Source: Nemertoderma westbladi (taxonomy: Eukaryota > Animalia > Xenacoelomorpha). From it: 64,000 nucleotides of DNA. How positions within the stretch are numbered: position 1 is the stretch's first letter; the number at the start of each line of letters is the position of its first letter. The translations under genes were made by a program, and so were the position numbers. Location of the stretch: NCBI GenBank assembly GCA_032718475.1, contig JAUCBJ010005005.1, positions 4,528-68,527 on the forward strand. The letters are read 5' to 3'. Below are positions 8,343 through 54,629 of this stretch, in pieces. The notes beneath the pieces were generated by a model. The model made no database searches. It was not told the origin of the DNA and was given only the letters and a program-made list of their open reading frames with translations.

Positions 8343-8347
8343 TTAAA

Positions 8348-20623: not shown

Positions 20624-23600
20624 TTTGGTTTGATGTTACTTACCTTATTTTGAATAACATTGTGCACACTCGTTCTTTCTTCGGACTTTCTCACCTGAAT
20701 TCTCTTAGGAGACGTAGGAGGAGTTTTTCTTACCTGTTCTCTCCTGTCATTGGTTCGAGACTTGAGTTTACTTACCTGTTCTTTAGGCATTTTATTGACA
20801 TAATAAGATCTTTCAGTGTCTTTCCCGCTATCTTCTCCTTGAGAAGTCTGGCTTTCGCCGTCGTCTATATAACACACTGGTGTTACCTTTCTCCTAGAAA
20901 CGGGTTTCTCACTTACCTTGTTTTCCGGTGTCTTCTCTCTGGACTGCTTTATGAGCTGTAATTTCACTTCGCCATCCAAGAATGACATGAGATCAGCCAT
21001 GGTAGGGTCTCGTTGTTGTTGTTCCATCATATATATCATTTTCTTGTCCCAGCGTGTACCTACTCCACCCTTCGGTAAAGTAGAAGCCACTGCTCTAATA
21101 ACCATAGCACTCTGATACTCATGAGACTTACCTAGCCAATCTAATTGTCTGCAGATCTCCTGAATCTCATCGGAAAACTCTATAATCCCGCTGCTAATAA
21201 ACTTTTGGGGCGCTACCAACTTTGCATACAAATACCCAGCTATGTTATTCCTATTACCATACCTGATGTTTAGTGTATCCCAAACTTGTCTTAATCCGTC
21301 TGGATGTCCAATAAACTTTAACGCCATTAACTTGGGAGATCCTTCCAAGCACTCGATGAGGAATCTAAGTTTCTCTCCATTAGATAGCACAGAGTTCTGT
21401 ATGTTATCTTTGTAATATTCATTAAAAGGTAACCATTTCATCTCATCTCCATTGAACTTGACTATCTCTCCCACCTTTACCGCTTGGCGGGCTTCGGTTC
21501 TAGCCATTTGACGCGTAAAACTTTCTTGGGCCATCGTGTTATTTAATATCGAGTTATCGGTATATAAATTTCTTGGATTATGATCAGGTCTATAGGGAAT
21601 ATCACTATCAACAGGTCTATAATTACCCTTAATAGGGTTTACTATAGGAGTTTCTACTTCGCTAGCAGTATAGATGCGTGTAGGCTCCACACCTTGCGCA
21701 TGAGATACTTCAGACCTAACGGGTTGACATATTGTTACAGAGGGTGGTGATATACCCTTTTGTAAATTTACTAATTTATCGCGTTCTAGCGCGATACTTT
21801 GCTGCACTTCTTGCAACTCTAACCTACTTTCCTTTACGGTTCCCTTTAACTGTTGAACAGTCCCTTCTAACTCTCGGACCTGTTGGGAGGAGCGCACTCG
21901 ATTCTCCTTCATCTCTCCAAGGAGAATGTCCATCCCCCGCCGTCTCTCGTCTACCCAATCAACCGCCGAAGCGGGATCCGCCAACGTCGTAGCGGGCAGA
22001 CGAGGGACTACGGGCGATATATCCTTTAAATTTCGCTCGGAGTCCAGGACCGACACTGTTTCAGGGGCTGTTCCTCTAGGCACAGATAATTTGGTGCTGT
22101 GTAAAGGGAATTTAAAGGTGGGTTCTGGGAGCACAGGTGTCTCTATCACCGAAGGGGTGATTTCAAGAACAGGCCTAATTATTTCAGGCTCATCTACTAT
22201 AGTAGGGAGTCTTTCTATTTTAATTATTTGGTCTGTGGGTTCTGTACTACCTAAATCTGTGTTAGTTAGTTGCCTTCTAACAGCTGGGGGCAAATCAGGC
22301 AATTTGTGACGGTGAGATGTTCTTCTACGTCTACTTAGACGAGATCTATTTCCTCCGCCTTCAGGATCGGTGGTATCGCCTTCCTCAGATGAGGTATAAC
22401 CTTGTCTTTTGGGAGTAGATCTATTCATCATCTGCATATTACTAGCTGTTAACTGTTTACTGAAGTTGTCTTGCTTCTCTTGAAGATTTTCCAACTCTAG
22501 TTGGGTTGTCTCTTCAGATGCCCTCCGTTCTGCTTCTGCCACTGCTATTTTTGCCTCTGCCGCTGCCTCTGCCACTGCCGCCTTTCTTTCTGCTTCTGCC
22601 ACTGCTGCTGCCGCTGCTGCTATCTTTCTGTCTTCTATACGTTTTTTCTTTACTTGTTCTTCTTGAACCTTAGCGATGCAGATGCTTTCATTGAATTTAG
22701 CTTGGTTCGCAGCTAACCTATCCACATCGATTGCGTCCAACACACGCTGGGCTCCTTCACTATTAGGGCTAAGCCCCTCTAGTCTTCTCCTCAACTCTTC
22801 ATCTCCTACAAAACGTTGATAGTCCGACAGATAGATGTCAATGGCATCCCTCTTATGCGGCTTCTCTGCCGTCGCTTCACTTTCCACTTGGGAAAAAGTA
22901 GCGTCTGTTGATTCTCCATGGGTTGAGCGCTCATCCAGTTGGGCTTTCCACTGAGTCGTTCCTTGCACCTGGAGGCTCACCCGTTGAAACCAAGTCTTTA
23001 CGGCAACTTGCAACGACGTGTCTTGTCTTCTTTTAGAAGCCTCCTCAAAGGCCGATAAGATTAGCCTGATTCGTAGAATTCTTTCTCTAACTCGATAAAG
23101 CAGCTGTCCCTGCTCTTGAGGTCCTTGGGGTTGTTGAAACAGTTGTTTTTCTAATCGCTCCATGGAGCTGAAGAATCCCTGTACGTATCCGGCTGCGGAC
23201 CTCTTCCACACAGCTGGATCGATGGTTTCCTTGGTTACTCCCATCCTGTGTATATCTTCCCAAGCAGCTTCTGATAAATTTAACGGGAGTCCGGGTCCGG
23301 GGAAGTTCCATTGCGACTCGACAATAGACTTCAGTTCTTCCCTTGTGTATCCCGCATAACTATCTTTAGTCGATCGCTTACTTCTCGCCCAATCGATCTG
23401 GTGTTCTTCCACCGCAATCAATAACCTAGTGAGTACGGCTGCAGGAAGGATGAGAAGGGGATCCGAATAAACCGCATCCGTCATCTTTGCTCCGCGCTCG
23501 GGTGTCAGCTCTACAGTATCCTCACTACTGGAGCTGTCGGGCCATTGAGAAATAAGTTCTTGGCTCGCGGGTTGTTGTTGTTCCGCTGCTTCTTGGTCCC

Positions 23601-23799
23601 GCTTGACCTGAGCTCTAGTGCCTATGATAGACCTACGGTGTTGGACCAGCCTAGGTTCTGATATTACTACTGGGGGAATGATCTTTCTTACAGTAGGAGG
23701 TGAGTTGAACTTCGGTCTAACACGTTCCACACTCCTGTCTAGGTCACATATGGTTGTATCTAGGAGACTGTCTGACAGATTTTGCTTTGTGTCAGACAT
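20593..23799 (-). CDS. gag: Element B Gag (Bel/Pao, DUF1759-like capsid region)
   Basis: 1068 aa; KFNGDEMKWLPF...EKLRFLIECLEG signature; leads into the Cys/His knuckles. Confidence 0.85.
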   Translation of the reverse strand: MSDTKQNLSDSLLDTTICDLDRSVERVRPKFNSPPTVRKIIPPVVISEPRLVQHRRSIIGTRAQVKRDQEAAEQQQPASQELISQWPDSSSSEDTVELTPERGAKMTDAVYSDPLLILPAAVLTRLLIAVEEHQIDWARSKRSTKDSYAGYTREELKSIVESQWNFPGPGLPLNLSEAAWEDIHRMGVTKETIDPAVWKRSAAGYVQGFFSSMERLEKQLFQQPQGPQEQGQLLYRVRERILRIRLILSAFEEASKRRQDTSLQVAVKTWFQRVSLQVQGTTQWKAQLDERSTHGESTDATFSQVESEATAEKPHKRDAIDIYLSDYQRFVGDEELRRRLEGLSPNSEGAQRVLDAIDVDRLAANQAKFNESICIAKVQEEQVKKKRIEDRKIAAAAAAVAEAERKAAVAEAAAEAKIAVAEAERRASEETTQLELENLQEKQDNFSKQLTASNMQMMNRSTPKRQGYTSSEEGDTTDPEGGGNRSRLSRRRRTSHRHKLPDLPPAVRRQLTNTDLGSTEPTDQIIKIERLPTIVDEPEIIRPVLEITPSVIETPVLPEPTFKFPLHSTKLSVPRGTAPETVSVLDSERNLKDISPVVPRLPATTLADPASAVDWVDERRRGMDILLGEMKENRVRSSQQVRELEGTVQQLKGTVKESRLELQEVQQSIALERDKLVNLQKGISPPSVTICQPVRSEVSHAQGVEPTRIYTASEVETPIVNPIKGNYRPVDSDIPYRPDHNPRNLYTDNSILNNTMAQESFTRQMARTEARQAVKVGEIVKFNGDEMKWLPFNEYYKDNIQNSVLSNGEKLRFLIECLEGSPKLMALKFIGHPDGLRQVWDTLNIRYGNRNNIAGYLYAKLVAPQKFISSGIIEFSDEIQEICRQLDWLGKSHEYQSAMVIRAVASTLPKGGVGTRWDKKMIYMMEQQQRDPTMADLMSFLDGEVKLQLIKQSREKTPENKVSEKPVSRRKVTPVCYIDDGESQTSQGEDSGKDTERSYYVNKMPKEQVSKLKSRTNDRREQVRKTPPTSPKRIQVRKSEERTSVHNVIQNKVSNIKPKCVLCDGATV

Positions 23800-23929
23800 G
23801 TTGGTTTGTACAGTTGAATGCCTACTACTATATTACAGTTTAAGCAAGTTTAGTAATTCAGTATCAACTGTTAGCCTAGTAATTAATTACCGATACTGCT
23901 ACTTAGTGTAGCGTGATATATGTATAATA

Positions 23930-31494: not shown

Positions 31495-33387
31495 TATTGG
31501 AAGAGACAGCAACAATACCTGCAATATCCTACTGTAAAGTTTGTGAATCAAATCATAAATCCGACCTTCTCACCAAAACAGTAAACTCTAAGTAAGCGAA
31601 TATATTGCAGTATCGATCTCTTATAACCGGTGAGGCAGAAAACAGTCTACGAGCAGACAAACTTCGATGAAACAAAATCCCGCGCAGCGAATCCTAAAAT
31701 CAGGCTGACTCACTGACGGACTAAGGGGCTCGTATACTTTGCCGCGGTGTGATTTATATGGTTGGGCGAAAGAGACGCTAGCTAGGTACAGAGGCAGAGA
31801 TTTGGAGATGTCTAACTAGCGGGCAAAGCACAGTACGGACAAAAGTTAATTTTATATATTTTGAGGTGTAAATAATTTCTAACGCGCGTGTTAATTCTGA
31901 ACGGTCAAAAGCAGTTTTGCTCCTTCACATATATAATTACTGGGTACGGTGTGCATTTTACGAATATTCTAATTTTGTAACTCGTAGGTCCAATACTCAC
32001 GAATGATAAGGTTCCTTCCCCTCTTGCGTATTTCCAGGACTCAAATTCAGGCATAAGGTTAATGCTACGCCCAGAATTCGGCAATTTTAGGTACCAGGTC
32101 CCTGATACTAAGAAGAGATGTGTTAGTTTACTACTGTAGGCGTACAGTTACTAATAGCTATCCTGGCTCCTATCTAGAATTTTAGTCACCCAGGTAGTCC
32201 GGGTAACTTCCTATTAGGGCGTTGGCGGGGACACGGTAGATGTTAGTATCCCTAATAGCCTCAATTTATTTGCGCCTAGCTGTAAACTGCCCTACCGCCT
32301 GAACGGTACAATCCCAATTCAGGTGAAAACACAGCAACCCCTCTAGCCTACAAGTTCTAATGCAATGGACACCGTTGTACTACAAATAGTCGCACACGCA
32401 CCTGCACTTAGCAAGAGTTAGGCGTACAGTTTGCTGCACCCTACCAATTTGTATGCTTCGTACCAGTGTGCCTACGTCCTATCTGCGTACTAGTATCTGC
32501 CTGCTCTTTCCCTCTCCCCCCGTAGGAATGTGAAGGTCTACTGTGGGTTTTCCTGAATCAAGACAGTACAGTCCCTAAGATGTAATTTTAGGCTCACAGC
32601 GTGTCACTACTTCTACCTTTTGATCTTTTGGTCTTACACTTAGGTAGCAAGGCGTCGAACGCTGTCTAACCTTTCAGGCGATGGGTGAATAACTCAAGAT
32701 GGTATTGCGGGTTGTCTCTTGTCTACATTCCCCCGATGTTCCCGTTCATTGCTGCGGCCCGATCTCTAGCTGGCCATCCTGTCCCTTAGCTGGGTTCACC
32801 GTAGTGAATCATGGTAAAACAGATAGAAAAAAGCAGATTAGCGATAATTCTGACTTTATTACAGAAGATATAATTATAATACAATGTAATCTGAAATAAA
32901 CTAAGCACGACAGAATTAAAGTGATGTGTGTGATAGATATTGAATGAGATAACTAATGAACAAATCGCACCTTTATATACTAAATTTGTGCCGCAATCAA
33001 TCGAGAAAATTCTCGATTGTTCTATAGGTTCTAACAGGTTTTTAAAGATAGCTATTGGTCCAGCTAATATATAACTTGCACGACATTGGTTACAATCAAA
33101 TAACTACAGTCTCATTGGTACAGACAAATGCAATTAATTTGTAGCGGTTAATTTAAATGAGTTGAAATTCTGCACAAAAATAATTCGCACTTACTAGGAT
33201 TCGAACTCAATACCTACTACACATATAATTTCCAACGCTCTACCGACTGAGCTACTGAACCACTTGACCAATAGGCGTATAAATAGAAATAGCAATACAA
33301 ATGAGGACTCAAAGCAATCTTTACAAAGTTAATTCGAATAAAATAAAATTTTGAAAATCCACGGCATTTAGGGAATATAATTCTATA
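31495..33387 (-). repeat. Element A 3' LTR (1893 bp, TA...TA termini)
   Basis: About 4 substitutions and one 20-bp indel versus the 5' LTR (by eye). Confidence 0.95.
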
Positions 33388-34121: not shown

Positions 34122-36929
34122 TTATCGCTTAGTGGATCGAGCCCTGCCGCGTCCTCGAAAACTGCGCACAGGTGACTTTGCTCGCGATATGGGACTCGTG
34201 GGGCGAGTCACTGGTTTCGTTTGGACGTTGAGAGACGGTGCGACCATTTCCTCGCAAATTCGTCTATTTGGCATCCCAAAACTTCGACCGATTCCTCGTG
34301 ACCGATCAGTTGTCACTACAGTTGGTAGAACGTCTGGGAACGCGCGAGAAGCGGACGACGCAGACCCAAGAGTAGCTTGCGCCCCCTGTTGATCAGCTGG
34401 TGTATGTCCCGATCCTCCTACTGGTTCTCTAGGAAGCGATACCGTATCCCGAGTAATTCGAATGGTCGGCTCAACTCCCTTGCGTTCTTCTACATTAATA
34501 ATTTTCTTTAATTGTTGGCCCACTTTCTGGACCCGTATGATCCTACCCTGTCCGTCCTCCCGAGGGTGACGTGCAGACGGCGCAACCGGAGTGGCTGGTA
34601 TATTTGTCGCCTCTAGGACCTCTTCTTCCTCGAATACGCTCGCTCGTATACGTTTATGGTAAAACGCGGCTCGGTACGCCCATGCGACGGTTAACCAAGC
34701 TCCTTTGTTCCGCTTTTCAGTTCGGAAACGATCGAATTCACCATACGTAATGCGATTAACGACTTTCTGAAAATTCCACGTGTTTTTGTTATCCGGGTGA
34801 ATCTGTAGTAGATACTCGCGCACCACTCGGAATCCGCTGTCGTGGGGCAAAATATCGACAACCTCGATAAGTTCGTCATATTGGGGCATAGCGGAGATGT
34901 ATCCTTCCGACATCATCGTTTGGGGATTTACCGCCCAAAATCCAAGATGCGCTCTCATCGGAAACCGTCTTCTTTGTGCTGATACATGTTCGTCGGCTAA
35001 ATCTTCCCACTCATCAAATAACTTCCTCACGAGTTTTACAGATTCGTGTTCATAAGGTATATCTCTTAGTTGGCATTCAGATGCTCGATGTCCTTTTATA
35101 TTGCAGTAAGTACATTGAGCCATAAATCTCCAGCAAGTATAAAAGGTATGAGACCCTTGATCCCCACACCATCCACAGATTAGCTGAGTCGTAGTAATGT
35201 GCTTTCCACTGCACTTTGTCATATGATGTCCAGCGACGCCACATTTACTACACATCGTATTGGCAGGGTACCACACTCGTTCGTATATAAGATCTCCAAT
35301 CGGTCGAGCGCTTCCTCCCACACTATAATCGTAATCATCTGGGTCTATGGGTTGGTAGGTTTCTGAAGGTTGTATACAAACTATAGCATCTGTTGCTTCA
35401 AGTTGTCGAATCTCCGTCTGAGATTTCTTCGGGAGGTTCCTTTCTATCTCAAGAAGTTCCTCTAAAGGATCATCGGCGATCGTAGTAGTTACTTCGAAAT
35501 CATCACCAAGGTGACCGATAGGCGCGCGCGTCTGCCGTGATTCTTCCGTAATCTCCACGATACGTTCTCCTTCATAGGGTAACAATGTAAACATAGATGG
35601 TCTTTCGATAAGAGATCCCGCACAGCGAAGATACACGTCTCGAAATATACTAAATCCTGCTCGAGTAAAGGCATTACACTGAGCGTCGGAGTTGTAGAAG
35701 GGTTCAAGGAATCGTCTAAACACGTCGGTACGAATTCTCCCTTCCATGTAGAACGTATGATCTTCTCCGAGACAAAGTGGATGTCTTTTGAGAGTCCGAG
35801 ACACAATGTCGGCGATTAGGCAAACATTCACTGACAACTCTATTGCTAAATAATATTGTAGGACCGCTCTTGGAGGTGACGTAATAGCCCAATACACGCA
35901 TCCTCTCCATTTAAGCTGTGATTCAAACTCACTCATATCTGGAGTATCACCTTCTCCATAAGTTTCAATATACTTGTTTCTCTTATTTTCCTTATAATCC
36001 CAATTGAATAACAGGTAGGAAATGTATCCAGTTCCAGTCTTCTGAGTATTATACTCACGAAAATATCCCTGTTCTATAGACCACAAAATAAGAGGTCGAG
36101 TGTCGACGTAAGGTGTCGGTAGTCGGTCATCGCTGTCCGTCATGCCGGCGAAGTCGCTAATTAAATCCTCCCTTACTCCTGATCCAATCTTTACAACAGT
36201 TTTATCTAAAATCATGTTTCTTACCATCTTCGGTAGCATTCTAGCGTCAATATTACAAGCTTGGTCCATCTTCTTTACTATGTCGGTGATAAGATGGTGT
36301 CGCTTTGTATTCGCTGGAGGTATCGGCATTCGTTTGTCGCTCCTCTGTCTACTGAAAACGTGCAGGACTCCGTCCGCCGCTCTAATTTGTATAGTCTTAG
36401 AAGTCAAACTCTTCTGATGACTGCCGCCCTCGTTATCGTAAAACATGTAACCGTTTTCCTGAAACGATCTAAATGTCCTATTCCATTCATCCAACAATTC
36501 TTCCGAAGGTTGCCAAATCTTCTCTATGTCCTTATCATCTTCGAAACGAATAACCTTACCTCGCCAATCTGCGGCAATATCTGTATCCGACTCGAAGGTT
36601 CCGGTTCCAATCCATAAACGAATCGTCTTGGTTAAATATCCTTTCAAATTACTCGGAGCTATATCGGCACCAGCTCTATCCAGTTCCTTGAAGTCTTGGA
36701 TATGAGGTGGGACGTTGTACACGACCTTTTGAGTAATATGTCTACGTAAATCATATATCTTGCTCATATCGCTGAAAACAACTGCAGGAAGAAACTCCAA
36801 GTTCGAAATGATTTCTGGATGATCCACGATGGGTATTTCGTACGTCGTATCCTGTCGGACTGGTATACTAATAGGGAAATTGAGTGTCGTACTCAATGGT
36901 TTCGTAGTTGATGTACTATACGGTTGCAT
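34122..36929 (-). CDS. Element A ORF3: DEDDy/WRN-like 3'-5' exonuclease domain plus three CCHC zinc knuckles
   Basis: 935-aa intact ORF; FYDNEGG, VVKIGSGVREDL, YVDTRPL, YLAIE; CSKCGVAGHHMTKC, CGWCGDQGSHTFYTC, CTYCNIKGHRASEC. Confidence 0.75.
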   Translation of the reverse strand: MQPYSTSTTKPLSTTLNFPISIPVRQDTTYEIPIVDHPEIISNLEFLPAVVFSDMSKIYDLRRHITQKVVYNVPPHIQDFKELDRAGADIAPSNLKGYLTKTIRLWIGTGTFESDTDIAADWRGKVIRFEDDKDIEKIWQPSEELLDEWNRTFRSFQENGYMFYDNEGGSHQKSLTSKTIQIRAADGVLHVFSRQRSDKRMPIPPANTKRHHLITDIVKKMDQACNIDARMLPKMVRNMILDKTVVKIGSGVREDLISDFAGMTDSDDRLPTPYVDTRPLILWSIEQGYFREYNTQKTGTGYISYLLFNWDYKENKRNKYIETYGEGDTPDMSEFESQLKWRGCVYWAITSPPRAVLQYYLAIELSVNVCLIADIVSRTLKRHPLCLGEDHTFYMEGRIRTDVFRRFLEPFYNSDAQCNAFTRAGFSIFRDVYLRCAGSLIERPSMFTLLPYEGERIVEITEESRQTRAPIGHLGDDFEVTTTIADDPLEELLEIERNLPKKSQTEIRQLEATDAIVCIQPSETYQPIDPDDYDYSVGGSARPIGDLIYERVWYPANTMCSKCGVAGHHMTKCSGKHITTTQLICGWCGDQGSHTFYTCWRFMAQCTYCNIKGHRASECQLRDIPYEHESVKLVRKLFDEWEDLADEHVSAQRRRFPMRAHLGFWAVNPQTMMSEGYISAMPQYDELIEVVDILPHDSGFRVVREYLLQIHPDNKNTWNFQKVVNRITYGEFDRFRTEKRNKGAWLTVAWAYRAAFYHKRIRASVFEEEEVLEATNIPATPVAPSARHPREDGQGRIIRVQKVGQQLKKIINVEERKGVEPTIRITRDTVSLPREPVGGSGHTPADQQGAQATLGSASSASRAFPDVLPTVVTTDRSRGIGRSFGMPNRRICEEMVAPSLNVQTKPVTRPTSPISRAKSPVRSFRGRGRARSTKR

Positions 36930-37847
36930 TTATCTTGTCCTCTCCGGGGATGCAATCTGTAGTCTCTGAATAACGTTTTGAGCAAAGTTTATGCTCTCGA
37001 AAACTTCCGGTGTCATCTCCTTAGCTGGAGTTTGATCGTGTGACGTCCAATGGTAAGGTAGGCTCGCGAGTCTTCCGCCCCATTCTTCCATCTCACCTTT
37101 CTCGAAAGCCTTGTAGGCTCTGTATAGGCTAAGAGCTTCTTTCTTTTCGCGGGTTGACTGATTTGCCTCGTCCAGCGTAAGTTCAAATACATCGGGTTCA
37201 ACAACCTTAGGTGGGTAAATGACAGTTTCTCCCGCCTTTGGTCCGGTCATAGCAAATGAATGATATGGATTCGATAAAGGATACCCTCCTTCCTGGTAGC
37301 GTAGTTGTTGATGGTTCGAACACCTCGCCAATATCGGTTCGGGATTTTCCTTATTCAAATGCATCGGAATCGCATTTCGTTGTTCGCGCATACAAGAACC
37401 GCATTGATAATAAAGTTTATAAACTGAAAATGCTTCCTTGGTTTCTCTATCGTCCCCTCGAGTTCGTCTGTAAAGATGCATTCCATCAAATTCATCTCGT
37501 ACCGCGGGCATAGGTTCGTGCGCCTTCAGGTATTGCATGGTATGATACAAACGACTAATTTCAGTATCGGGGTCTTCGCTAATGTCTCCCGTATCACACA
37601 AAGCGTCGTACGGATAAAGTTCGTTGAAGGTTTGGCGCAAACTTTCGATTCTTTCGTTTAATGCGTTTTGCCTTCTCTTTAATACGTTCGAGTCATATTT
37701 AGTTCTCGCGAGTTTCGCTGTACTTTCCGATAATTCCTTTATACCGAATATAGTATAGTCCTTGGCTCCAAATCTTTCGCATGGCGCTGCTGCCTCCTCT
37801 TGGATATCATATCCCCATCTCGGCTCTCCTTGTATCCCTTTCTCCAT
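36930..37847 (-). CDS. Element A ORF2: unknown protein with putative Zn site (CxxC...CxxH)
   Basis: 305 aa; homologous by eye to the N-terminus of the B/C accessory ORF; its stop abuts the ORF3 ATG in frame. Confidence 0.7.
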   Translation of the reverse strand: MEKGIQGEPRWGYDIQEEAAAPCERFGAKDYTIFGIKELSESTAKLARTKYDSNVLKRRQNALNERIESLRQTFNELYPYDALCDTGDISEDPDTEISRLYHTMQYLKAHEPMPAVRDEFDGMHLYRRTRGDDRETKEAFSVYKLYYQCGSCMREQRNAIPMHLNKENPEPILARCSNHQQLRYQEGGYPLSNPYHSFAMTGPKAGETVIYPPKVVEPDVFELTLDEANQSTREKKEALSLYRAYKAFEKGEMEEWGGRLASLPYHWTSHDQTPAKEMTPEVFESINFAQNVIQRLQIASPERTR

Positions 37848-38506
37848 AATTAGGGGTGTAGTTACATAATCATTACTACTAGAGGGAATACAACAGAGTT
37901 TGTAGTTAGTTGTGAGGAGACGTGAGAGTTTCGTCTGCCCTTTGGGCTCGACAACGCTCTAACCTCCTACCCATAGCCTAAGATCTAGGGTTTCTTTAAT
38001 GACACGCTGCTTCTTATCTAAAATTTTTGCCGAAATAAAAACGAATTTGGGCTAAACTGGCCGTGAGTCTAAAATACTCACCTTTTGATCCCAAACTATT
38101 ATCAGAAAATAAGCAATCAAGAATTAGTAATAAATATAGGGGAGTCTATTTTGACGTAACTTATTGAAACAAGACCGTGTAAAATTTAATTAAAATTTTT
38201 AAGAAAGGCTCGCAAGTCTTCCTCTCTTGTTTCTCTAATTTTAAGTTCCACCCGACTGTACCCTGAAATCTATTCACTGGAGAAAATTTTAAAATTTTTT
38301 CAAATCCAAATGGATTGTCTAAAATTTCGAAAATGTCTCAATATTGTGAGTTCCAAGTAGAATTCCATTTCTTATACCTACAAATCCCGCTCCTATGTGA
38401 CACATAAGGGTACTACCCTCAATGTTCACATATAAAGACAATGGAATTCTACCGCTGTCCTTACTACGGTGTACAGGTACGTGGAAATCTATTTGTAAAC
38501 TCCTAA

Positions 38507-41500
38507 TTATTTACTAGTATTAGGTGGAGATTTGTAGTCTCCAGATTCGTTACGAGTCTCTTCAAGAAGTACGAGACGTTGAGTCGGTCTGTCTACTGTA
38601 CGACCGTCAATTGTCCGTACCGTCACAGTTCTTGTCACTCCATCCATAGATGGATGTGTGGCTAAAATTACACCTGTTATCCAGAAGCGTCTTTTTAGAT
38701 TCACTTCTGCCAACAGCACGTGATCTCCCGGCTTTAATGCGCGGGTGTTATTATACCAAGTTGTTCTGGCAGAAATAGAGGGCAAATAATGGTTTTGCCA
38801 TATTTCCCAGAATTTGTTAGCTAGTAGTTGCGTGATTTTCCACGCTTTTCTACCGTAGCTGTCGCTTTCTATTGGAATAGAAATAGGTGTCAAAGTTGTC
38901 GGTGCCTGCATAAGCAGGTGTGCCGGTGTCAAAGCGAACTGAGATTGTTTGTCATCGGGTACTAATACTATTGGTCTAGTATTTAGTATTGCCTCGATTT
39001 CAACAAACAGTGTTGTCAGTTGGTCGTCTGTCAATATGTGGTTTACTGGAATGACTTTTGCCATTGCCGTCTTTATAGATCTAATCAATCTCTCCCAGAC
39101 TCCGCCTCTCCAAGGACTATCTGGAGGATTGAACTTCCAAACAATCTTGTGAGGTTGCAGTTCGTTCGAGATTTGATCATGATCTAATTTCTTAAAGGCT
39201 CTAGCAATCTCATTTCGAGCACCAACAAAGTTTGTCCCTTGGTCTGAGTACAAGCATTTTACTAGTCCGCGTCTAGCGATAAATCGCCGCAAGGCTAGTA
39301 TAAACGCGTTGGTGGAAAGATCCATCACACGTTCAATGTGAACTGCCCTACTGGACATACATGTGAAAATCAGTCCCCAGCGTTTTACTAGTATACGTCC
39401 ACGTTTCGTATGTATGGGACCAAAGCAATCAATTCCAGTCTCTGTAAAAGGTGGTCTGAATGCTTGAAGTCGTGCTTGTGGTAGTTCACTCATTTCTTGG
39501 GTACCTATTCTAGAATGTACCTTTTTACAAATAATACACGTACGTGTCACTGAACTTAACGCTTTACTGGGTCTAATTAATACAAATCTTGTACGTAAGT
39601 AGGAAAGACAGTGGTGTCTTCCAGCGTGTTTTAGATGTAAATGTGCATCCAGTATCATTGCACGTTGTAGTTCGTGATGTTGCGGTATTATTATTGGGTA
39701 CCTAAAGTTTGTGTTAAAGTCAATGTTTTGAAGCCGAGATTTATGACAAATTAAGTCATTGTAAATAATCGGACTCCAACTCAGTATTGGTGACGACTTG
39801 ATTGGTTGACCTTGATTTATGGACGTGAATTCGCGCGCGAAATATCGCAGTTGGTAATGGCGAATTAATTTAATCTCACACCTCTCAATCTCAGTCAATG
39901 TAAGTCGACGTGTAAAGTCACGTTTGCCTTTAACGTATTGTACAAAACGTACAATCCACGCTAATTTTCGGCAAGCGCTTGTCCAAGAGTCTGTTAAGTT
40001 TACAATCCGGTCGACGTGAGTATTTGTGACGTCATCAGGTAAGTCAATGGAGATTTTGGAAGGTTTTGAATTACTAGAAGGGCCCACGGGTCCGCCGGTA
40101 AGTATTCCCTTGTTGACTGTTGATCCTTCCGGGTCTACAAGTAATTTGTCCTTCTTCGTCTTCTTACCTTGATTGTCGGTACTTTGTAAGTCGATCGTTA
40201 ATGGTGGTTTGAACTCTATGGGGTCAGCAGGTTTCGGTAAACTTAATTTGCTGCCAACATTAATCCCAGGTTTCACCATAGGTTGCAAGTTCGGTATGTC
40301 TCTTGAGCGCAAAGTAACACCTGTATTTACATTAGCGTAGGTACTACCCACATCTGTAATACATGAGGTTTCACCGTGCTTATGGTTGCTCAAGTGTGTC
40401 AAAATTGGTAGTTTGTCAATACAAGGCCGCTCCAATAGGGAAACTGCGGCTTCACTATTTGTCAGTACGTTACTAGTGTCTAGTCGACTGTCTAGTAATG
40501 TGTCTGGCGATACGTCTGGTAACGTATCTGGTTGTTTGTCAATAGAAGGCCGCTCCAACAGAGAAACTGCGGCTTTACTGTTTGTCAATGCGTTACTAAT
40601 GTCTGGTAGAATGTCTGATTGACCGTCTAGTAACGTGTCTGGTTGACCGTCTGGTAACGTGTCTGGTTGACCGTCTGGCGATATGTCTGGTGTAGAAAGG
40701 CTCGCAAGTCTTCCTCTCTTGACCTTTGAAGTTATCGCTTTCCATTTCGCCTTCGGTTTTTTCTTGAGTTTTGCCGTCGTCGTCTTTTTCTTTGCCTTCC
40801 CCTTTTTTGGTTTCTTGATTTCGGCGTCCTTAGGGATGGTGTTAGACTTGTTGTCGTATAACGGTGGCCAATCTTGCGTCGATTTCTGCAAGAATTGGGG
40901 TCCGTGTTGCCAAAATTCTTTGTTCTCCGGTTTACAGAATTCCTCAGACATCATTCCTCGCGACGCAATATCAGCTGGGTTTTGTGGTCCGGGACAATGT
41001 CGCCAATCCTCTTTTATTGAACGGTCTAGAATTTCTGCGCGACGGTTAGCTACGAATGTCTTGAATTCAAGTGTGTCGTTGTTTATGTAAAATAAAACCA
41101 ACGTCGCGTCAGTCCAATAAAATATCTGTAAACTTGACTGTAGTTCTGTCTGTATAAGGTTTACGATGGTGGTTGATAGTGTTGCGGCTTGTAGCTCAGC
41201 TCGTGGTGTCGTCATATACTTAGTAGGCATTGTTTTTGCCTTAGAAGTAATGAGCGAAACATCGAATGCTTCTGAGTCTACTTGTCTGCGCAAGTACGCT
41301 GCCACACCAAAACCGTTGTCACTGGCGTCAGAAAAACAGTGTAGTTCCAAGTTGTCAGGAAATGTACTTTGTAATGGAAAGTAAACTCTGGGTATGGAAT
41401 ACTCCTCTAGCGAAGATAATTCCGCCTCCCAGGTCTTCCATAAGTCCACTTGGTCTGATGAGATCGGCTCGTCCCATGTTAGTCCATCCTTCCAAATACT

Positions 41501-44500
41501 GCGCATATAAATGCGGGCTTGCAGTATTACTGGACTGATGAATCCTAACGGATCGAACAATCGGCTCAATTTTGACAAGCATGATCTCTTTGTCAGTGTG
41601 TTCTCTTGACTGTCCAGTCTCACCTTCACTCGGAAGTTGTCCGTGTTTGGGTCCCAAAAGAGCCCCAACACCTTGGTCGTCGGTAGTGGTTCGAACTCTA
41701 GGTCTATGTCACCACCTCCATGCTCAGTCGTTCCGAATGAGTCTACTAATTCGGCACTGTTTGAGGCGAATTTGGTGAGGTTGAAACCTCCGCCCGCCAA
41801 GCAGTCCCGTAATTGATGTGCTACTGTTGTAGCACGTTCTACTGTGTCGCAACTCTGTAATCCGTCGTCGACGTAAAAGTCACGTTCCACAATCCTAATT
41901 ATCTCTGGGTCATATAGGTGTTTCTGATCTCTAGCGGCTTGTTTTAGGGCGTACATCGTGCAGTTTGGGCTGTCCCTGGCACCGAAAACGCGAACTTGCA
42001 TTTGGTAAGTCGTCGGTGGTAGACTTAAGTCTCCTTCCGGGTACCAGAGGAACCGCAAACTGTCTCTGTCTCGCTCTAACGCTCTCACTTGGTGAAACAT
42101 CGCTTCAACGTCGCAAGTAAAAGCTACTTGACGCTGACGGAAGCGCATAATCACCCCCATAAGATAATTATTCATGTTTGGTCCATCCATCAACTCGCTA
42201 TTGAGGGACATTCCCTCAAACAGAGCCGCACAGTCGTTGACTACGCGTACTTTGTCTGGTTTGTCGGGGTGTCTCACGTAGTGATGTGGCAAGTAATACG
42301 TCTGGTCAGTCACTCGCTCCGGGTTAGTCATCCGGATAGCGTATCCCTTGGTCAAATACGTCTCCATCTGAGTGTTGTACTGCAGATGGGCTTTCTCGTC
42401 CTTTAATAGACGTTGTCGGATTGAGTGTAGACGTCTTAACGCTAGTGGGTAGTTGTTTATAAGTTTAGGACTTTGGCTACGCCATAACATCCCCACCTCG
42501 TAATGTCCGTCCTCCGTCTGTCGGATAGTATCTTCCATGATCTTCAGAGATTGTTTCTCCTGTTCCGACATACAAAGTTCGTAGCTACCAGGTTCAGCTG
42601 TATCTTGTTCTAACCACCTGATAGTCTTCTCCGTTAATTCCTTGTCCAGTGCAGCTTGTTCCATTTGATGATTTCTCAACGCGTCATCATCGATCTCGAC
42701 GGGCATTGTTGATGTCGTTGGGGTAGGTAGACTCGCAAGCCTTCCGGCGTTATCATCTGTCGTCGATGGAATCTCTAGCTGACTCGTCTTCTCCCCAAGT
42801 TCTAAACTCCGCTGGTGGATTAGCTGCTCCTTGTGACTTATCATACTAGTCACACGTCTGTCACGTTTTGTCGACTGTAGTGTAGTATGGTTCACGTCGT
42901 GTGAGAAGGAATGAATTGAATTTGTAGTTAATAAACTACATGTACTTTGTACATCGTCTTCCTCGTCACTTACGTCTAGTGTGCGCACAGGCGCTCGAGT
43001 ATACCACCCTATCGGCGTTCTGCAGCCGTATGCGTTTCCCGCTACGACTGCCGATGGTCTGGTTTCCCACCCCTGATGTAGGTTGAATTGGTCTGTCCCG
43101 ATCAGCATGGCTACCGATCGATAATTGACAGGACATTCAGGTACACCAAGGTGTCTGAAATACTTACGGTCCTCCAAGGATTGTTCTGGGACCGGACCTA
43201 GTAGGTTACTAAAGTCTTTTGTGGCCGCAAAGGTCAAATCCTTGAAGGGTAACAAAGACCTCTCCCTCTCGCTGTGTTGCGATTTCGGAAGAAGAGAGTC
43301 TAAGTTTAACTTGACTCGTGTCACTGGTATTGCACGCTGTCCGTGCATACTACTTACGGTATAACTGACGCGCTTACCTTGTCTGAGATCCGTCACGACG
43401 TCAGCTATCTTTTCATCCACGTAGCTGTGAGATGAGGCTGAATCTAGAATCGCGTAGATTCTCTTACTCCCCTTTGTGCCAGTAATCTTAATTGGAATTA
43501 CACTGAATCCCTTCAGTTGGTCAGTAGTCAGAAGCGCGATCGATGGCTGTTCATCTCCATCCGAATATACGTCGTCGTCTTCTGACTCTTCGTCCGACGA
43601 TCCGGATTGTTCTGAGAAGCAATCCTCAATATGGGTCACGAAGGTCGGAGTCGTTTTCGATTCTCGTTTTCTGTAGGCCGCATCACATCTCGCTGCTGCT
43701 TCCGGGTGTTCCCTGGCGAAGCGTTTTGTCGGCGTGTGGCTGTCCGTGTGGAGCAGACCGTCGTGGTTGCGTCCACAGGATGGACAAGTGTCGGTATTTG
43801 GGCAATCTTTACGGACGTGTCCGTGTCGCGTACACCGCCAACAAGAGTCCAATGGCCGTATTTGCAGCCGTCGTTCTTCCGAGTTCAACTCGCGAAACTG
43901 TCGACAACCTCGCAACTTGTGACCGATATACCGCTTGCCTAAATGCTCGCAGTATTGGCAGCCGCTGAAGTCGGTACTGAGTTGTTGTCTCGTCTGTTTT
44001 GTCCCAATGGGCGCAGATACCCTACTACCGTCCGAGAATTGTCGTGATTCCGTCGGTGTGGCGTAAGTGGCCGTCTTGGTGGATGTTGTCTGAGGTTTTT
44101 GTCGGTTGGAGGATGGCAAGGTGATCCCTTCTGCTACGATGTGCTGGTCAGTGTAGTTGGATCGAGTTTCTACAACTGCTTCCCTGGATATCAAAAGATA
44201 CACATCCTCTAATTTTAAGAATCCACCCCGCTCTTCTCGCTGGTATTCGATCTTTCTCCACTCCCGACGAAGTCGATGGTGGAGTCGTCCTATGATTTTT
44301 AATAGGACTGTAGGGGTATTCCCGTAGTCAAGTTGTCCAATGGATCTTAAAGTAGTGATAGCGTTCTTTATCTCGTCGGCCAGTTTTAATAAGTCGACGG
44401 GTTTAGTGATAGCCCCTCCCTTACAGAGTTCCTCTATTACTGACCTGGCCATACTGACTGTACCTCCGTATATCGAAGTTAAACGATCGTACGCTAGTTC

Positions 44501-46378
44501 GAAGGCGTCCGGTACACCAACGAAGGTCTCTGCCAAACGTTTAGGTTCTCCTGACAACGTTTGAAGCAGGTAATTAAACTTCTCCCGTGATGTAAAGGCG
44601 CACACGGCGATCTGAGATTCGATATAGTCTACGAATGTGTGCCAGTGTTTTGAACTACCGGAAAACTTCGGTGGTTGTTGTACCGGCAATCCTTGCCTGG
44701 CTGCGAATTTCGCTATCTCCTCGGCAACGTTCAGAGTTTCGCGTCCTTGGTTGGTAACCTGGTTGGTGTTCTCCCTTCTTGGCGCTTTTCCCTGATACGA
44801 TGTATGTTTTGAAGGTACCGGTCTTTGTGGTTCCTTCGGGTGTCTATTGTGTTCGAATTCGGAATTTCTCGAACTGTCGGTGTAACCTTCCTCCAGACGC
44901 TCCTCGATCTGAGCCAACTTGTTAACAACTGGTCGCAGGATGTCGGCGAACTGTTGTGCACTGATTGCGTCCGTTGGTTGTAACGCCTTCTGTGTTGGTG
45001 TATTCTGTGGAGGATTGTCTACAAAGGAGTTATCTGAACGCTCGCGTTTATATTCATCGGCCGCCCCTGTTCTAAATACCTCGCGTTTCGGGTAATCCGA
45101 TTCGCTCGAAGTACTACTATCATCTGGATATGGTGGTCGACGTGCTCGCGTCCGTTGCGTCGTACGAATTCTAACATTTCGCTTTGGAACATCGTCCACT
45201 GATCTCCGTTGTTCGGTAGGCTCACAAGTCTTCCTCGAAGTCGTAGATTGCGATGTAAACTGATTGAACGGTCGCGTATCCACTGTTCTCCATTGTTCGG
45301 TAGGCTCACAAGTCTTCCTCGAAGTCGTAGATTGCGATGTAAACTGATTGAACGGTCGCGTATCCACTGTTCTCCGTTGTTCGGTAGGCTCACAAGTCTT
45401 CCTCGAAGTCGTAGATTGCGATGTAAATTGAACCAGTGGTCGAGTAACAGCGTTTGAATCCAAAGGCCTTGTTGGCCTAAACGTCATTGGGTAAGCATAG
45501 TGTGTAACAGGTTTTGGCGTCAGAGGTGGACTCACCTGTTTTGTCGTCAGTAGTGCAGGTCCGACTAATAAACTACTACGATCTGTAATCGGCGGGTTAC
45601 TTACCTTTGGAATAGGCGACGACGTTGCTCTTGGCGGTGTAAACTTGTCCGGAATAATAAACCTGTGTTCCGTCGCACCATGGATAGGAGAAATATCACT
45701 ACTACCCGCAATCGAAACAGGTTTCTTAGTTGTAACTGGTGCGAACATAGGGGTTACTTGAGGGAATCTTTGACATAAGTCCTTTACTAATTGTCGTTCC
45801 CGTCCAGGTGCTCCTATCGAACCTTCCTTCATTCGTTCCTGGATTTGGCGATGCCTTACCTCTATCTGGTCCAAATCATGTCCGTCACGAGATCTCATCG
45901 ATCGATCACGGGCTAGAAGATCCAGATTTTCCTTGGTTTCGGCTAATTCTCTCGCCCTTTTCTCAAGTTCGAAACGAAGTTTAACTTCCTTTTCTCGTTG
46001 TTCCGTTTGTTGTTGTTGCGCCTCGAACTCTGCTTGTCGTATCGCTTGTTGGGCTTTTATTTGCCGTGTCTTCATCTCGACTCTGGCTTCTGAAACTAAC
46101 CTTTTTCTTTCTAACTCTGCCGCTGCCGTTTGTCGCTCTAACTCGGCTGCCGCCGTTTGTCGCTCTAACTCGGCCGCTGCCGCTGCCGCTGCCGTTTGTC
46201 GCTCTAACTCGGCTGTTGCCGTTCGTTGCGCTAACTCGGCCGCTGCCGCTTGTTGGGCAATGTCCAACTCTAACCTTTCCATTTCGGCCGCTTCGAGTTC
46301 GGCTTGTTCCTGCAGATGAGAGATTCTCGCTACATTCGCAACACGTATTTTCTCTTCCTCTACCGCTGTTTGTATCAT
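38507..46378 (-). CDS. gag-pol: Element A Gag-Pol polyprotein, main part: gag, knuckles, PR, RT, RNase H, integrase
   Basis: 2623 aa; ILDSASS (PR), YYLPHH and FYVDDG (RT), FSDAS/PRAEL/WTD/NPADIASRG (Pao RNase H), HHCC plus GIDCFGP/SDQGTNF/GGVWERLI (IN). Confidence 0.97.
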   Translation of the reverse strand: MIQTAVEEEKIRVANVARISHLQEQAELEAAEMERLELDIAQQAAAAELAQRTATAELERQTAAAAAAAELERQTAAAELERQTAAAELERKRLVSEARVEMKTRQIKAQQAIRQAEFEAQQQQTEQREKEVKLRFELEKRARELAETKENLDLLARDRSMRSRDGHDLDQIEVRHRQIQERMKEGSIGAPGRERQLVKDLCQRFPQVTPMFAPVTTKKPVSIAGSSDISPIHGATEHRFIIPDKFTPPRATSSPIPKVSNPPITDRSSLLVGPALLTTKQVSPPLTPKPVTHYAYPMTFRPTRPLDSNAVTRPLVQFTSQSTTSRKTCEPTEQRRTVDTRPFNQFTSQSTTSRKTCEPTEQWRTVDTRPFNQFTSQSTTSRKTCEPTEQRRSVDDVPKRNVRIRTTQRTRARRPPYPDDSSTSSESDYPKREVFRTGAADEYKRERSDNSFVDNPPQNTPTQKALQPTDAISAQQFADILRPVVNKLAQIEERLEEGYTDSSRNSEFEHNRHPKEPQRPVPSKHTSYQGKAPRRENTNQVTNQGRETLNVAEEIAKFAARQGLPVQQPPKFSGSSKHWHTFVDYIESQIAVCAFTSREKFNYLLQTLSGEPKRLAETFVGVPDAFELAYDRLTSIYGGTVSMARSVIEELCKGGAITKPVDLLKLADEIKNAITTLRSIGQLDYGNTPTVLLKIIGRLHHRLRREWRKIEYQREERGGFLKLEDVYLLISREAVVETRSNYTDQHIVAEGITLPSSNRQKPQTTSTKTATYATPTESRQFSDGSRVSAPIGTKQTRQQLSTDFSGCQYCEHLGKRYIGHKLRGCRQFRELNSEERRLQIRPLDSCWRCTRHGHVRKDCPNTDTCPSCGRNHDGLLHTDSHTPTKRFAREHPEAAARCDAAYRKRESKTTPTFVTHIEDCFSEQSGSSDEESEDDDVYSDGDEQPSIALLTTDQLKGFSVIPIKITGTKGSKRIYAILDSASSHSYVDEKIADVVTDLRQGKRVSYTVSSMHGQRAIPVTRVKLNLDSLLPKSQHSERERSLLPFKDLTFAATKDFSNLLGPVPEQSLEDRKYFRHLGVPECPVNYRSVAMLIGTDQFNLHQGWETRPSAVVAGNAYGCRTPIGWYTRAPVRTLDVSDEEDDVQSTCSLLTTNSIHSFSHDVNHTTLQSTKRDRRVTSMISHKEQLIHQRSLELGEKTSQLEIPSTTDDNAGRLASLPTPTTSTMPVEIDDDALRNHQMEQAALDKELTEKTIRWLEQDTAEPGSYELCMSEQEKQSLKIMEDTIRQTEDGHYEVGMLWRSQSPKLINNYPLALRRLHSIRQRLLKDEKAHLQYNTQMETYLTKGYAIRMTNPERVTDQTYYLPHHYVRHPDKPDKVRVVNDCAALFEGMSLNSELMDGPNMNNYLMGVIMRFRQRQVAFTCDVEAMFHQVRALERDRDSLRFLWYPEGDLSLPPTTYQMQVRVFGARDSPNCTMYALKQAARDQKHLYDPEIIRIVERDFYVDDGLQSCDTVERATTVAHQLRDCLAGGGFNLTKFASNSAELVDSFGTTEHGGGDIDLEFEPLPTTKVLGLFWDPNTDNFRVKVRLDSQENTLTKRSCLSKLSRLFDPLGFISPVILQARIYMRSIWKDGLTWDEPISSDQVDLWKTWEAELSSLEEYSIPRVYFPLQSTFPDNLELHCFSDASDNGFGVAAYLRRQVDSEAFDVSLITSKAKTMPTKYMTTPRAELQAATLSTTIVNLIQTELQSSLQIFYWTDATLVLFYINNDTLEFKTFVANRRAEILDRSIKEDWRHCPGPQNPADIASRGMMSEEFCKPENKEFWQHGPQFLQKSTQDWPPLYDNKSNTIPKDAEIKKPKKGKAKKKTTTAKLKKKPKAKWKAITSKVKRGRLASLSTPDISPDGQPDTLPDGQPDTLLDGQSDILPDISNALTNSKAAVSLLERPSIDKQPDTLPDVSPDTLLDSRLDTSNVLTNSEAAVSLLERPCIDKLPILTHLSNHKHGETSCITDVGSTYANVNTGVTLRSRDIPNLQPMVKPGINVGSKLSLPKPADPIEFKPPLTIDLQSTDNQGKKTKKDKLLVDPEGSTVNKGILTGGPVGPSSNSKPSKISIDLPDDVTNTHVDRIVNLTDSWTSACRKLAWIVRFVQYVKGKRDFTRRLTLTEIERCEIKLIRHYQLRYFAREFTSINQGQPIKSSPILSWSPIIYNDLICHKSRLQNIDFNTNFRYPIIIPQHHELQRAMILDAHLHLKHAGRHHCLSYLRTRFVLIRPSKALSSVTRTCIICKKVHSRIGTQEMSELPQARLQAFRPPFTETGIDCFGPIHTKRGRILVKRWGLIFTCMSSRAVHIERVMDLSTNAFILALRRFIARRGLVKCLYSDQGTNFVGARNEIARAFKKLDHDQISNELQPHKIVWKFNPPDSPWRGGVWERLIRSIKTAMAKVIPVNHILTDDQLTTLFVEIEAILNTRPIVLVPDDKQSQFALTPAHLLMQAPTTLTPISIPIESDSYGRKAWKITQLLANKFWEIWQNHYLPSISARTTWYNNTRALKPGDHVLLAEVNLKRRFWITGVILATHPSMDGVTRTVTVRTIDGRTVDRPTQRLVLLEETRNESGDYKSPPNTSK
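45200..45430. repeat. 84-bp in-frame tandem repeat (about 3 copies) in A gag
   Basis: QFTSQSTTSRKTCEPTEQ repeated three times. Confidence 0.9.
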
Positions 46379-50960: not shown

Positions 50961-50971
50961 CACATTCCTAC
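50961..50971 (-). other. Element A non-tRNA primer-binding site GTAGGAATGTG
   Basis: Abuts the 5' LTR; exact complement of sense LTR segment CACATTCCTAC at 51999-52009 (32522-32532 in the 3' LTR). Confidence 0.8.
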
Positions 50972-52435: not shown

Positions 52436-52620
52436 ATTGAATGAGATAACTAATGAACAAATCGCACCTTTATATACTAAATTTGTGCCGCAATCAATCG
52501 AGAAAATTCTCGATTGTTCTATAGGTTCTAACAGGTTTTTAAAGATAGCTATTGGTCCAGCTAATATATAACTTGCACGACATTGGTTACAATCAAATAA
52601 CTACAGTCTCATTGGTACAG
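52436..52620 (-). promoter_or_regulatory. Putative Pol II promoter of the A LTR
   Basis: Three CCAAT boxes (~52551, 52582, 52611), TATATAAAG at ~52468-52476, TCATT initiator-like at ~52441. Confidence 0.6.
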
Positions 52621-52671
52621 ACAAATGCAATTAATTTGTAGCGGTTAATTTAAATGAGTTGAAATTCTGCA

Positions 52672-54586: not shown

Positions 54587-54629
54587 CTAGAGTATATCTA
54601 CAGTTCTATAAAGTAACTTGTAAATGGAC

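Follow-up and report, generated by a model that had tools for sequence, protein, structure and literature searches.

What does the reading frame lodged in the env position of a 21.4-kb LTR retrotransposon of Nemertoderma westbladi encode, and what could it do for the element that carries it? The window, a 64,000-nt stretch (GCA_032718475.1, contig JAUCBJ010005005.1, positions 4,528-68,527), is the source of three elements with copies of this accessory frame, referred to here as A, B and C. All features described below lie on its minus strand.

Host elements and the env-position reading frame

Element A is a BEL/Pao element and a young insertion, bounded by a 5′ LTR of 1913 nt (50972..52884; TA..TA ends, 5-nt target duplication) and a 3′ LTR of 1893 nt (31495..33387) that differs from it by 4 substitutions. 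Its gag-pol (38507..46378) is a single open frame of 2623 codons with matches to DUF1759, Peptidase_A17, Integrase_H2C2 and DUF5641, and so presents the BEL/Pao set of a DUF1759 gag, a Pao peptidase/RNase H region and an integrase with DUF5641; no dUTPase match was found in P0003. Element B is delimited by LTR comparison, with a 5′ LTR at 25847-27014 and a 3′ LTR at 4858..6026 (5 substitutions between them, TG..CA ends), and also has a 5-nt target duplication. It retains gag (DUF1759 and a knuckle) and protease at 19190..23832, and measures 15.0 kb even though reverse transcriptase (RT), RNase H and integrase are absent. Both hosts are assigned to BEL/Pao on the basis of Pfam domains, paired LTRs and target duplications. 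The LTRs of A and B have nothing in common except chance words of 11-14 nt, and their gag proteins are 27% identical over 165 columns, which bears out the strong divergence described in an earlier note on this DNA.

The accessory coding region of element A occupies positions 37847-34122, between the end of pol (38507) and the 3′ LTR (33387-31495), and thus the env position, as the earlier note had placed it. That note had called the copy intact, but it has an in-frame stop at 36930-36932, with an N-terminal part of 305 codons (P0002, 36930..37847) on one side and, in the same frame, a C-terminal part of 935 codons (P0001, 34122..36929) on the other. The latter comprises a pre-exonuclease segment, an exonuclease-like domain, a linker, three knuckles, a helical tail and a basic low-complexity end. 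At the stop, 99.8-100% of contig depth carries another letter in all four runs (three samples). The stop is private to the copy of element A found here, so the family ORF is a single frame of ~1241 codons, and programmed stop-restart or readthrough at 36930 was rejected for the same reason.

In element B, the N-terminal part of the accessory ORF (15545..17592) has one stop near 16470 and is interrupted by a nested element, while the part with the exonuclease-like domain, knuckles and tail (6105..8347) has a frameshift near 7805 and a stop near 6645; together the pieces cover ~4.3 kb once the nested element is discounted, which agrees with the decayed frame of about 1400 aa proposed earlier. 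The two accessory ORFs match in tblastn at 33% (169 columns) and 27% (455 columns) identity (E=1e-50). Element C retains three pieces (53490-52885, 31494-30810 and 28831-27900) that are ~75-85% identical to B at the nucleotide level; the parts on either side of the exonuclease and knuckles are kept, as had been noted, and the intervening ~1.86 kb is deleted near 28370. All three window copies therefore have this ORF broken or deleted. The exonuclease domain itself is unbroken in family A, a high-depth family, and two low-depth joints, 35563-37688 and 35675-37708, remove it.

An env identity was rejected, in agreement with the earlier note. No signal peptide or transmembrane anchor was apparent in a Kyte-Doolittle scan of the seven ORF pieces, their N-termini are polar, and the top 19-residue hydropathy, 1.62, is located on the ExoIII helix of the exonuclease-like domain.

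The exonuclease-like domain and its zinc knuckles

Single-sequence searches of Pfam, NCBIfam and PDB missed the exonuclease in P0001, and PF01612 is reached weakly by five of 13 alignment members (best E=0.01). A profile combining A, B and their relatives matches EXD2 (E=1.9e-10), Egalitarian (E=2.5e-5) and WRN (E=0.009), and places a DnaQ/DEDDy-fold domain at 35784..36512, approximately residues 140-382 of P0001. Residues 33-317 of the structural model match NrnC/diDNase (Z 11-12.3), Nibbler (11.5), WRN (10.7), RNase D (10.7) and T. brucei RNase D (10.1-10.3), over spans of 154-181 residues with an rmsd of 3.3-5 and a structural identity of 9-18%. All 50 structural matches listed are DnaQ-fold proteins, and PF01612 appears in 24 of 30 matches by ESM features. 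The matches extend to Pol I exonuclease domains, beside WRN and EXD2, and to Egalitarian and Exd1, which are inactive RNA-binding relatives; Foldseek against viral models returned weak exonuclease matches (best E=3.3e-3). The mean pLDDT of the model is 48, with 44-87 in the exonuclease blocks, and the top Z values are tied within ~1, so that no nearest subfamily within the PF01612 group is singled out. As modelled, the accessory ORF almost certainly encodes an exonuclease fold. The likeness to WRN, EXD2, Mut-7 and RNase D that had been read from the sequence is upheld by the profile match to EXD2 and by model Z values of 10.7-12.3, and the DnaQ/RNase H-like fold, whose absence the earlier note had named as a refuting outcome, is indeed predicted.

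The key residues of P0001 are D165 (36437), E167 (36431), D255 (36167), D259 (36155), Y360 (35852) and E364 (35840). D165, E167, K247, G249, S250, D255, D259 and Y360 are identical in all 12 covering rows of an alignment with an overall identity of 20-26%. D165 and E167 form the ExoI D-x-E on strand E56-62 of the model, and D255 aligns with the ExoII Asp of EXD2; judged by topology, the catalytic residues fall on the strands and helices where they would be expected in a model whose pLDDT is low, and the four acids may cluster in one two-metal site. ExoIII departs from the canonical Y-x3-D: Y360 is kept, and the motif reads Y-x3-E in A, B and the relative P0005, so the domain is filed as a DEDDy-derived variant rather than a canonical member. 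Among 10 relative rows, the fourth acidic position is Asp in eight, Asn in one and Glu in one (P0005). The replacement of the fourth Asp by Glu thus holds for both A and B, as first observed, but is not unique to them. Other motifs reported as common to A and B were recovered as well (D-N/Y-E, KIGSxVxxDL, [V]DT and Y-x3-E, plus three knuckles). The domain is probably catalytically active.

Three Cys/His knuckles follow ~180 residues C-terminal to the exonuclease domain in A (35073..35252; residues 560, 585 and 606 of P0001), in the order C-x2-C-x4-H-x4-C, C-x2-C-x5-H-x4-C and C-x2-C-x4-H-x4-C, and their profile matches include Air2 and Lin28. The count of three CCHC knuckles stands for A and B, but not all are canonical, as the middle one is C-x2-C-x5-H-x4-C in both elements and the first in B has a 9-residue H-C gap. 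At the other end of the protein, ~440 residues carry no assigned domain. A C-x2-C-x23-C-x2-H motif in this region of A (37311..37403) is a candidate Zn site, and its equivalent with an x16 spacer occurs in B and C, so that the motif is kept in all three copies. The region has no Pfam, NCBIfam or PDB match, and its AlphaFold pLDDT of 35 is uninformative. This lack of a match or usable model does not argue for a new fold; of the novel Zn domain proposed earlier, a conserved motif is what was recovered.

Relatives and purifying selection

Hmmsearch gave ten matches; two of them, P0004 (fasciclin repeats) and P0012 (PKD repeats), were discarded as spurious, and the cluster member P0015 stood in for P0007. 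Eight unannotated relatives are counted, five of which have all three knuckles and one of which has Glu at the fourth acidic position. Sequence likeness assigns them to an unannotated family of exonuclease and three-knuckle proteins that falls below Pfam cut-offs. Word-indexed searches yielded none of 5459 candidates for P0001 40-720 and none of 5319 for alignment A2, and P0009 found itself only. No related loci were found in the viral contigs or metagenome contigs searched, and a degenerate motif scan returned four loci, none of which fits the family profile. The nearest Atlas cluster to P0009 is a euglenozoan one with PF01612 and zf-CCHC (0.90), a domain order also seen in T. brucei RNase D, and the second is an EXD1-like piRNA-factor cluster (0.84), which is a lead only. 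In trees, A groups with B with support but P0005 finds no stable place, so the trees do not show that the Glu arose just once.

The accessory ORF is under strong purifying selection. The dN/dS comparison suggested by the earlier note gave 0.085 for B and C over 514 codons, in parts outside the exonuclease, whereas the synonymous distance between A and B is saturated. Within family A, 28 of 54 variants, the best-supported part of a larger set, are synonymous, against an expectation of 22% (p=1.5e-6), or of 33% if all were transitions (p=0.003). Six of the 11 variants in the exonuclease are synonymous, and the catalytic codons are hit by none. Among the best 12 of 13 indels in family A, none falls within the accessory ORF.

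Self-priming, possible function and known systems

The primer-binding site (PBS) of element A (50961..50971) is 11 nt long, carries no TGG and is the exact complement of LTR position 876-886; by this complementarity, the candidate self-primer lies at 52009-51999 in the 5′ LTR. In element B, the 12-nt PBS at 25846-25835 is the exact complement of LTR position 432-443 (26583-26572), and the nested element has 10 nt of such complementarity at offset 0. Equivalent complementarity arose in 5/5000 null cases for A, 1/5000 for B and 3/5000 for the nested element, all at offset 0, and the PBS letters of A and B are unrelated to each other. A tRNA-type primer site (TGG) is absent from all three elements, and the window contains no tRNA genes. 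An extended R-U5 duplex is clear in A (predicted -39 kcal/mol, Tf1-like); in B and in the nested element the pairing is weak. Read from sequence, A, B and the nested element show Tf1-like self-priming geometry; the earlier note mentions neither this geometry nor the BEL/Pao identity of the hosts. The nested element shows it without an exonuclease ORF, and self-priming is therefore not necessarily tied to the exonuclease.

The favoured reading, tentative and credible without being probable, is that the knuckle-tethered exonuclease would trim the 3′ termini of RNA from its own element. The accessory ORF would, like an env gene, be expressed from a spliced message; splice-like signals lie 5′ of it in A (37876..38081), with a donor-like AG|GTGAGT at 38081 and a branch point, pyrimidine tract and AG at 37879/37876, as a consensus match only. 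As in T. brucei RNase D, the knuckles would hold single-stranded RNA and present its 3′ terminus to the active site; in the element protein, D165, E167, D255, Y360 and E364 would bind two metals with Glu substituting for the fourth Asp. The substrate would be element RNA, with the self-primer as the leading candidate: after a cut in the 5′ end of the transcript, the enzyme would digest an unpaired 3′ tail until it reached the 11-12-bp primer duplex abutting the LTR. A second candidate activity is the removal of tails that the host adds to element RNA. The product would work in trans, so that deleted copies such as C could still be carried along. That the enzyme acts specifically on the self-primer is rather unlikely. 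The fullest version is doubtful: a giant self-primed BEL/Pao lineage would have swapped env for a dedicated primer-maturation enzyme, in which knuckles grip the folded RNA 5′ end while a D-E-D-E exonuclease shortens the cleaved 3′ tail to the 11-12-bp duplex where reverse transcription begins, as part of a wide, unannotated exonuclease-knuckle family moving among retroelements. If true, this would mark the first link between an accessory enzyme and tRNA-independent priming.

Other functions would fit parts of the same evidence. The presence of the small-RNA trimmer Nibbler (Z 11.5) and of Exd1 among close structural neighbours points to a counter-defence nuclease that would trim or destroy host piRNAs, siRNAs or their precursors and so weaken silencing of the element. 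This is somewhat unlikely, though the EXD1-like second cluster of P0009 (0.84, a lead only) agrees with it, a separate env-position ORF acting in trans suits an accessory conflict gene, and rotifer elements captured exonucleases more than once (PMC5408684). The strong purifying selection, while compatible with an arms race, bears no sign of one. An RNA-binding adaptor like Egalitarian or EXD1, catalytically weak or dead and serving in transport, packaging or protection of element RNA, would accord with the fourth Asp-to-Glu change in A and B, with Egalitarian in second place among profile matches, and with the three nucleocapsid-like knuckles and ~440-residue N-terminal region. It is improbable given that 12/12 rows keep the Tyr and the three remaining acids unchanged and that the canonical Asp occurs in eight of the 10 relative rows; a fourth Glu is also compatible with catalysis in other RNase H-fold enzymes, namely RNase HIII and PhoExo I, although neither is a DEDDy enzyme (PMC4538837).

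The sizes of A (21.4 kb) and B (15.0 kb even in its reduced state), together with the WRN, EXD2 and Pol I exonuclease matches, might instead suggest a proofreader or end-polisher of reverse transcription, which would strip mismatched or non-templated 3′ nucleotides from cDNA and permit a genome near 20 kb. The analogy is nidovirus ExoN. Such a role is quite improbable for a domain that lacks fusion to RT and is encoded in its own, probably spliced ORF, with knuckles that suggest RNA. A neutral passenger, acquired from the host or another mobile element, would explain why the ORF is broken or deleted in all three window copies, and the rotifer ORF3s analysed showed no clear departure from neutrality (PMC5408684). 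This explanation is very improbable and largely refuted by the dN/dS of 0.085, by catalytic motifs kept across a saturated synonymous distance, and by a family ORF that is open in 4/4 runs.

For RNA 3′-end trimming, co-occurrence with self-priming supplies a concrete candidate substrate, and the exonuclease domain of family A, being unbroken, could be assayed in its natural form. In the portions of the Tf1, Tf2 and Tj1 papers available (PMC7175516, PMC4600332, PMC6317226), an 11-12-nt PBS lies flush with the 5′ LTR and is complementary to an LTR site, as here, and R-U5 pairing is described like that predicted in A. Those elements are Ty3/gypsy (Tf1/sushi group, with self-priming proposed for some copia elements too) rather than BEL/Pao, where the geometry is read from the DNA. 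The same portions do not mention an accessory exonuclease for Tf1, and its primer is there made by RNase H alone (PMC7175516).

The fusion of exonuclease and knuckles, once thought unusual, is present, but the unannotated relatives share it, and a cellular enzyme of solved structure, T. brucei RNase D (PDB 7c42/7c45), parallels it. This enzyme also has a DEDDy exonuclease followed by several CCHC fingers, which bind RNA upstream of the trimmed end (PMC7797062); unlike the protein here, it is a cellular mitochondrial enzyme of ~380 aa with four fingers and a 28-residue linker. The two likely arose as parallel fusions. EXD2, WRN-exo, Nibbler (Mut-7), Egalitarian-EXD1 and NrnC (PF01612) share the fold and the ExoI-III motifs with A and B and differ in the Y-x3-E, a natural site that probes DEDDy active-site variability.

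The closest arrangement in mobile elements is that of the rotifer Juno, Vesta and Athena/Terminon elements, which carry a DEDDy ORF3, so that the capture cited in the earlier note is published (Rodriguez et al., 2017; PMC5408684). No BEL/Pao case of DEDDy capture was found in print. Like the ORF described here, Juno and Vesta ORF3 is a separate DEDDy-type exonuclease ORF in the env position, with no transmembrane or signal segment and one altered acidic position; in contrast, the rotifer hosts bear a dUTPase between PR and RT, and the host of A is BEL/Pao. The A and B ORFs are also distinguished by their ~1240-1400 codons, three knuckles and long N-terminal region, and by a fourth acid that is Glu, whereas the rotifer text gives 'DEED' (PMC5408684). 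Selection on the rotifer ORF3 is unclear in that text, whereas purifying selection on the ORF of A, B and C is clear. The env-position exonuclease arrangement is thus extended to the BEL/Pao superfamily, and with it the question, standing since the 2017 rotifer report, of why retroelements repeatedly acquire 3′-5′ exonucleases.

The accessory ORF and its predicted exonuclease domain

The env-position ORF of element A lies within a nest of LTR retrotransposons and spans 37847-34122 in one reading frame, divided into 305 and 935 codons by one stop at 36930-36932. The present copy is thus not intact, contrary to the earlier note. At this codon, another letter makes up 99.8-100% of contig depth in all four sequencing runs (three samples from three studies; one sample may be the source sample). 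This indicates that the stop is private to the present copy and that the family ORF is single, of ~1241 codons, and a stop-restart signal at 36930-36932 is therefore rejected.

Element B retains this module in fragments, with identities to A of 30% in the N-terminal region, 25% (E=3e-4) in a short stretch before the exonuclease, 33% in the exonuclease, and 27% in the remainder through the knuckles. The B-related remnant, element C, lacks ~1.86 kb that spans the exonuclease and knuckles. In DNA runs, low-depth contig joints at 35563-37688 and 35675-37708 skip ~2.0-2.1 kb of family A, losing the N-terminal motif and exonuclease and retaining the knuckles. No ORF piece appears membrane-bound, in keeping with the view that this is not env. 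As for a novel Zn domain, a C-x2-C..C-x2-H motif recurs in 3/3 copies, and nothing further is established for the N-terminal region.

Single-sequence searches with the A ORF detect just one knuckle. A profile of A and B searched against 1.84 billion representatives yields 10 matches, two of which were dropped as repeat-protein artefacts; the other eight are unannotated relatives drawn from ENA, Logan, and NCBI sequences. Five share the whole core of exonuclease, linker, three knuckles, and helical tail (P0005, P0008, P0009, P0011, and P0013; 545-691 aa), P0010 has a single knuckle-like stretch, and the sequences of P0006 and P0007 end short. The profile of A, B, and relatives matches EXD2 (E=1.9e-10), Egalitarian (2.5e-5), and WRN (0.009), and its knuckle region matches Air2/Lin28. 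An AlphaFold model of residues 106-720, poor overall (pLDDT 48) and fair across the exonuclease core, aligns with NrnC/diDNase (Z 11-12.3), Nibbler (11.5), WRN (10.7), RNase D (10.7), and T. brucei RNase D (10.3); no subfamily stands out as the nearest. ESM features agree with the assignment from profile and structure, and all three lines back the earlier proposal of a DEDDy-like exonuclease.

Residues D165, E167, D255, and Y360 (numbered on the 935-codon part) are invariant in 12/12 covering rows at an overall identity of 20-26%, as are K247, G249, S250, and D259. At position 364, Glu is shared by A, B, and P0005; eight rows have Asp, and one row, which is apparently frameshifted, has Asn. 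Glu as the fourth acid thus stands for A and B but is not confined to them. The predicted fold and three of four acids are thus canonical, with an ExoIII motif of Y-x3-E. According to PMC4538837, RNase HIII and PhoExo I use a terminal Glu, which makes activity of a Y-x3-E domain, and by analogy catalysis by the A/B domain, plausible.

The dN/dS comparison proposed among the copies gives 0.085 for B vs C (514 codons, outside the exonuclease), but synonymous sites are saturated between A and B. Among the family-A variants listed inside the ORF, a subset beyond which the two tables have 172 and 17 further rows, 28/54 are synonymous (22% expected), including 6/11 in the exonuclease, and none of the 54 hits a catalytic codon; six clustered rows at 37080-37107, which originate from a divergent relative, are excluded. 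None of the 12 indels listed (of 13) falls within the ORF. On the B vs C ratio, the synonymous excess, and the lack of listed ORF indels, a passenger gene is rejected, and the accessory gene is maintained.

The elements and their primer sites

Element A (52884-31495, minus strand; 21,390 nt) has LTRs of 1913 and 1893 nt with 4 differing sites, ends in TA..TA rather than TG..CA (31495 and 52884), and is flanked by a clean 5-nt target duplication. It is inserted in C, which has 75-85% nucleotide identity to B. A 2-kb insertion in C (28832-30809) holds a fragment that reads like what is presumably the end of a non-LTR retrotransposon RT. The single-frame gag-pol of A (2623 codons) contains DUF1759, Peptidase_A17, Integrase_H2C2, and DUF5641, which identifies A as BEL/Pao, a group described as metazoan only (PMC3601003). 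A partly palindromic motif of 17-22 nt is dispersed ten times across coding and non-coding parts of A (33731, 34086, 37061, 38207, 40699, 42725, 45219, 45303, 45387, and 50059). A null of 100 resamples gives a mean of 0.03 copies and a maximum of 1, and the remaining 46 kb have none. The motif is absent from B and C and is a possible packaging or protein-binding signal.

Element B (27014-4858, minus strand) has LTRs unrelated to those of A, which differ from each other at only 5 sites, and carries gag, protease, and the accessory ORF without RT, RNase H, or integrase (17600-23832); it is a non-autonomous copy mobilised recently. Its polypurine-tract-like word has a second, internal copy at 18236-18250, upstream of the accessory ORF. 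Nested in B, and dividing it, is a plus-strand LTR element (8348-15539) that has LTRs of 530 nt and a 5-nt duplication. Its two ORFs, of 481 and 813 codons, overlap; it shows a gag-like Cys/His end and tandem repeats at 12800-13400, but no Pfam match and no pol. Further tandem arrays lie at 1620-1900 (27-nt units), 54059-54660 (30-nt), and 62596-63310 (12-nt).

No TGG-type tRNA primer site is found in A, B, or the nested element. Instead, the 11 nt directly after the 5′ LTR of A (50961-50971) exactly complement position 876 of its own LTR (51999-52009), the corresponding 12 nt of B (25835-25846) exactly complement position 432 (26572-26583), and 10 nt of the nested element (8878-8887) are complementary to position 357. 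The offset is 0 in each, the letters are unrelated between elements, and Markov nulls give 5, 1, and 3 per 5000, respectively. These are all three LTR elements of the window whose primer-binding position is intact. For A, a duplex of -39 kcal/mol is predicted between the U5 end and the bases behind the primer.

Possible role and known systems

The nearest known architecture is T. brucei RNase D, whose CCHC fingers hold the RNA at 5-9 nt from the terminus trimmed by the DEDDy domain (PMC7797062). This likeness leads us to read the accessory protein as an RNA-tethered 3′ trimmer: by analogy, the knuckles would tether RNA and the exonuclease domain would trim its 3′ end. The protein is probably made from a spliced message, judging from sequence, where an acceptor-like signal occurs at 37879, and would act in trans.

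Of the substrate classes considered, RNA ends of the element itself have the best support and are tentatively preferred. The self-primer is the sharpest single candidate, itself doubtful, and a dedicated primer-maturation enzyme is more doubtful still. Counter-defence, with the protein acting against small RNAs, is somewhat unlikely. An inactive RNA adaptor, set beside the invariant active-site residues, is improbable, and proofreading of cDNA, for a genome near 20 kb, is less probable again.

Neither a BEL/Pao element with an exonuclease ORF nor a self-primed BEL/Pao was found in the open-access literature as far as its texts were accessible; the word exonuclease is absent from the main text of PMC13524379. 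A record may exist that is unpublished or confined to databases (Repbase, GyDB, Dfam), to subscription journals, or to the Terminon paper. In the portions of the literature available, self-priming is described for Tf1/sushi, Tcn1, and some copia (PMC6317226), and Tf1 has the same geometry as here, with an RNase H cut after base 11 (PMC7175516, PMC4600332). Env-position DEDDy ORF3s are likewise described in rotifer Juno, Vesta, and Terminons (PMC5408684, PMC6431247, PMC6338049). The rotifer ORF3 text available from PMC5408684 gives the motif as DEED and mentions no knuckles, whereas A and B combine Y-x3-E with three knuckles.
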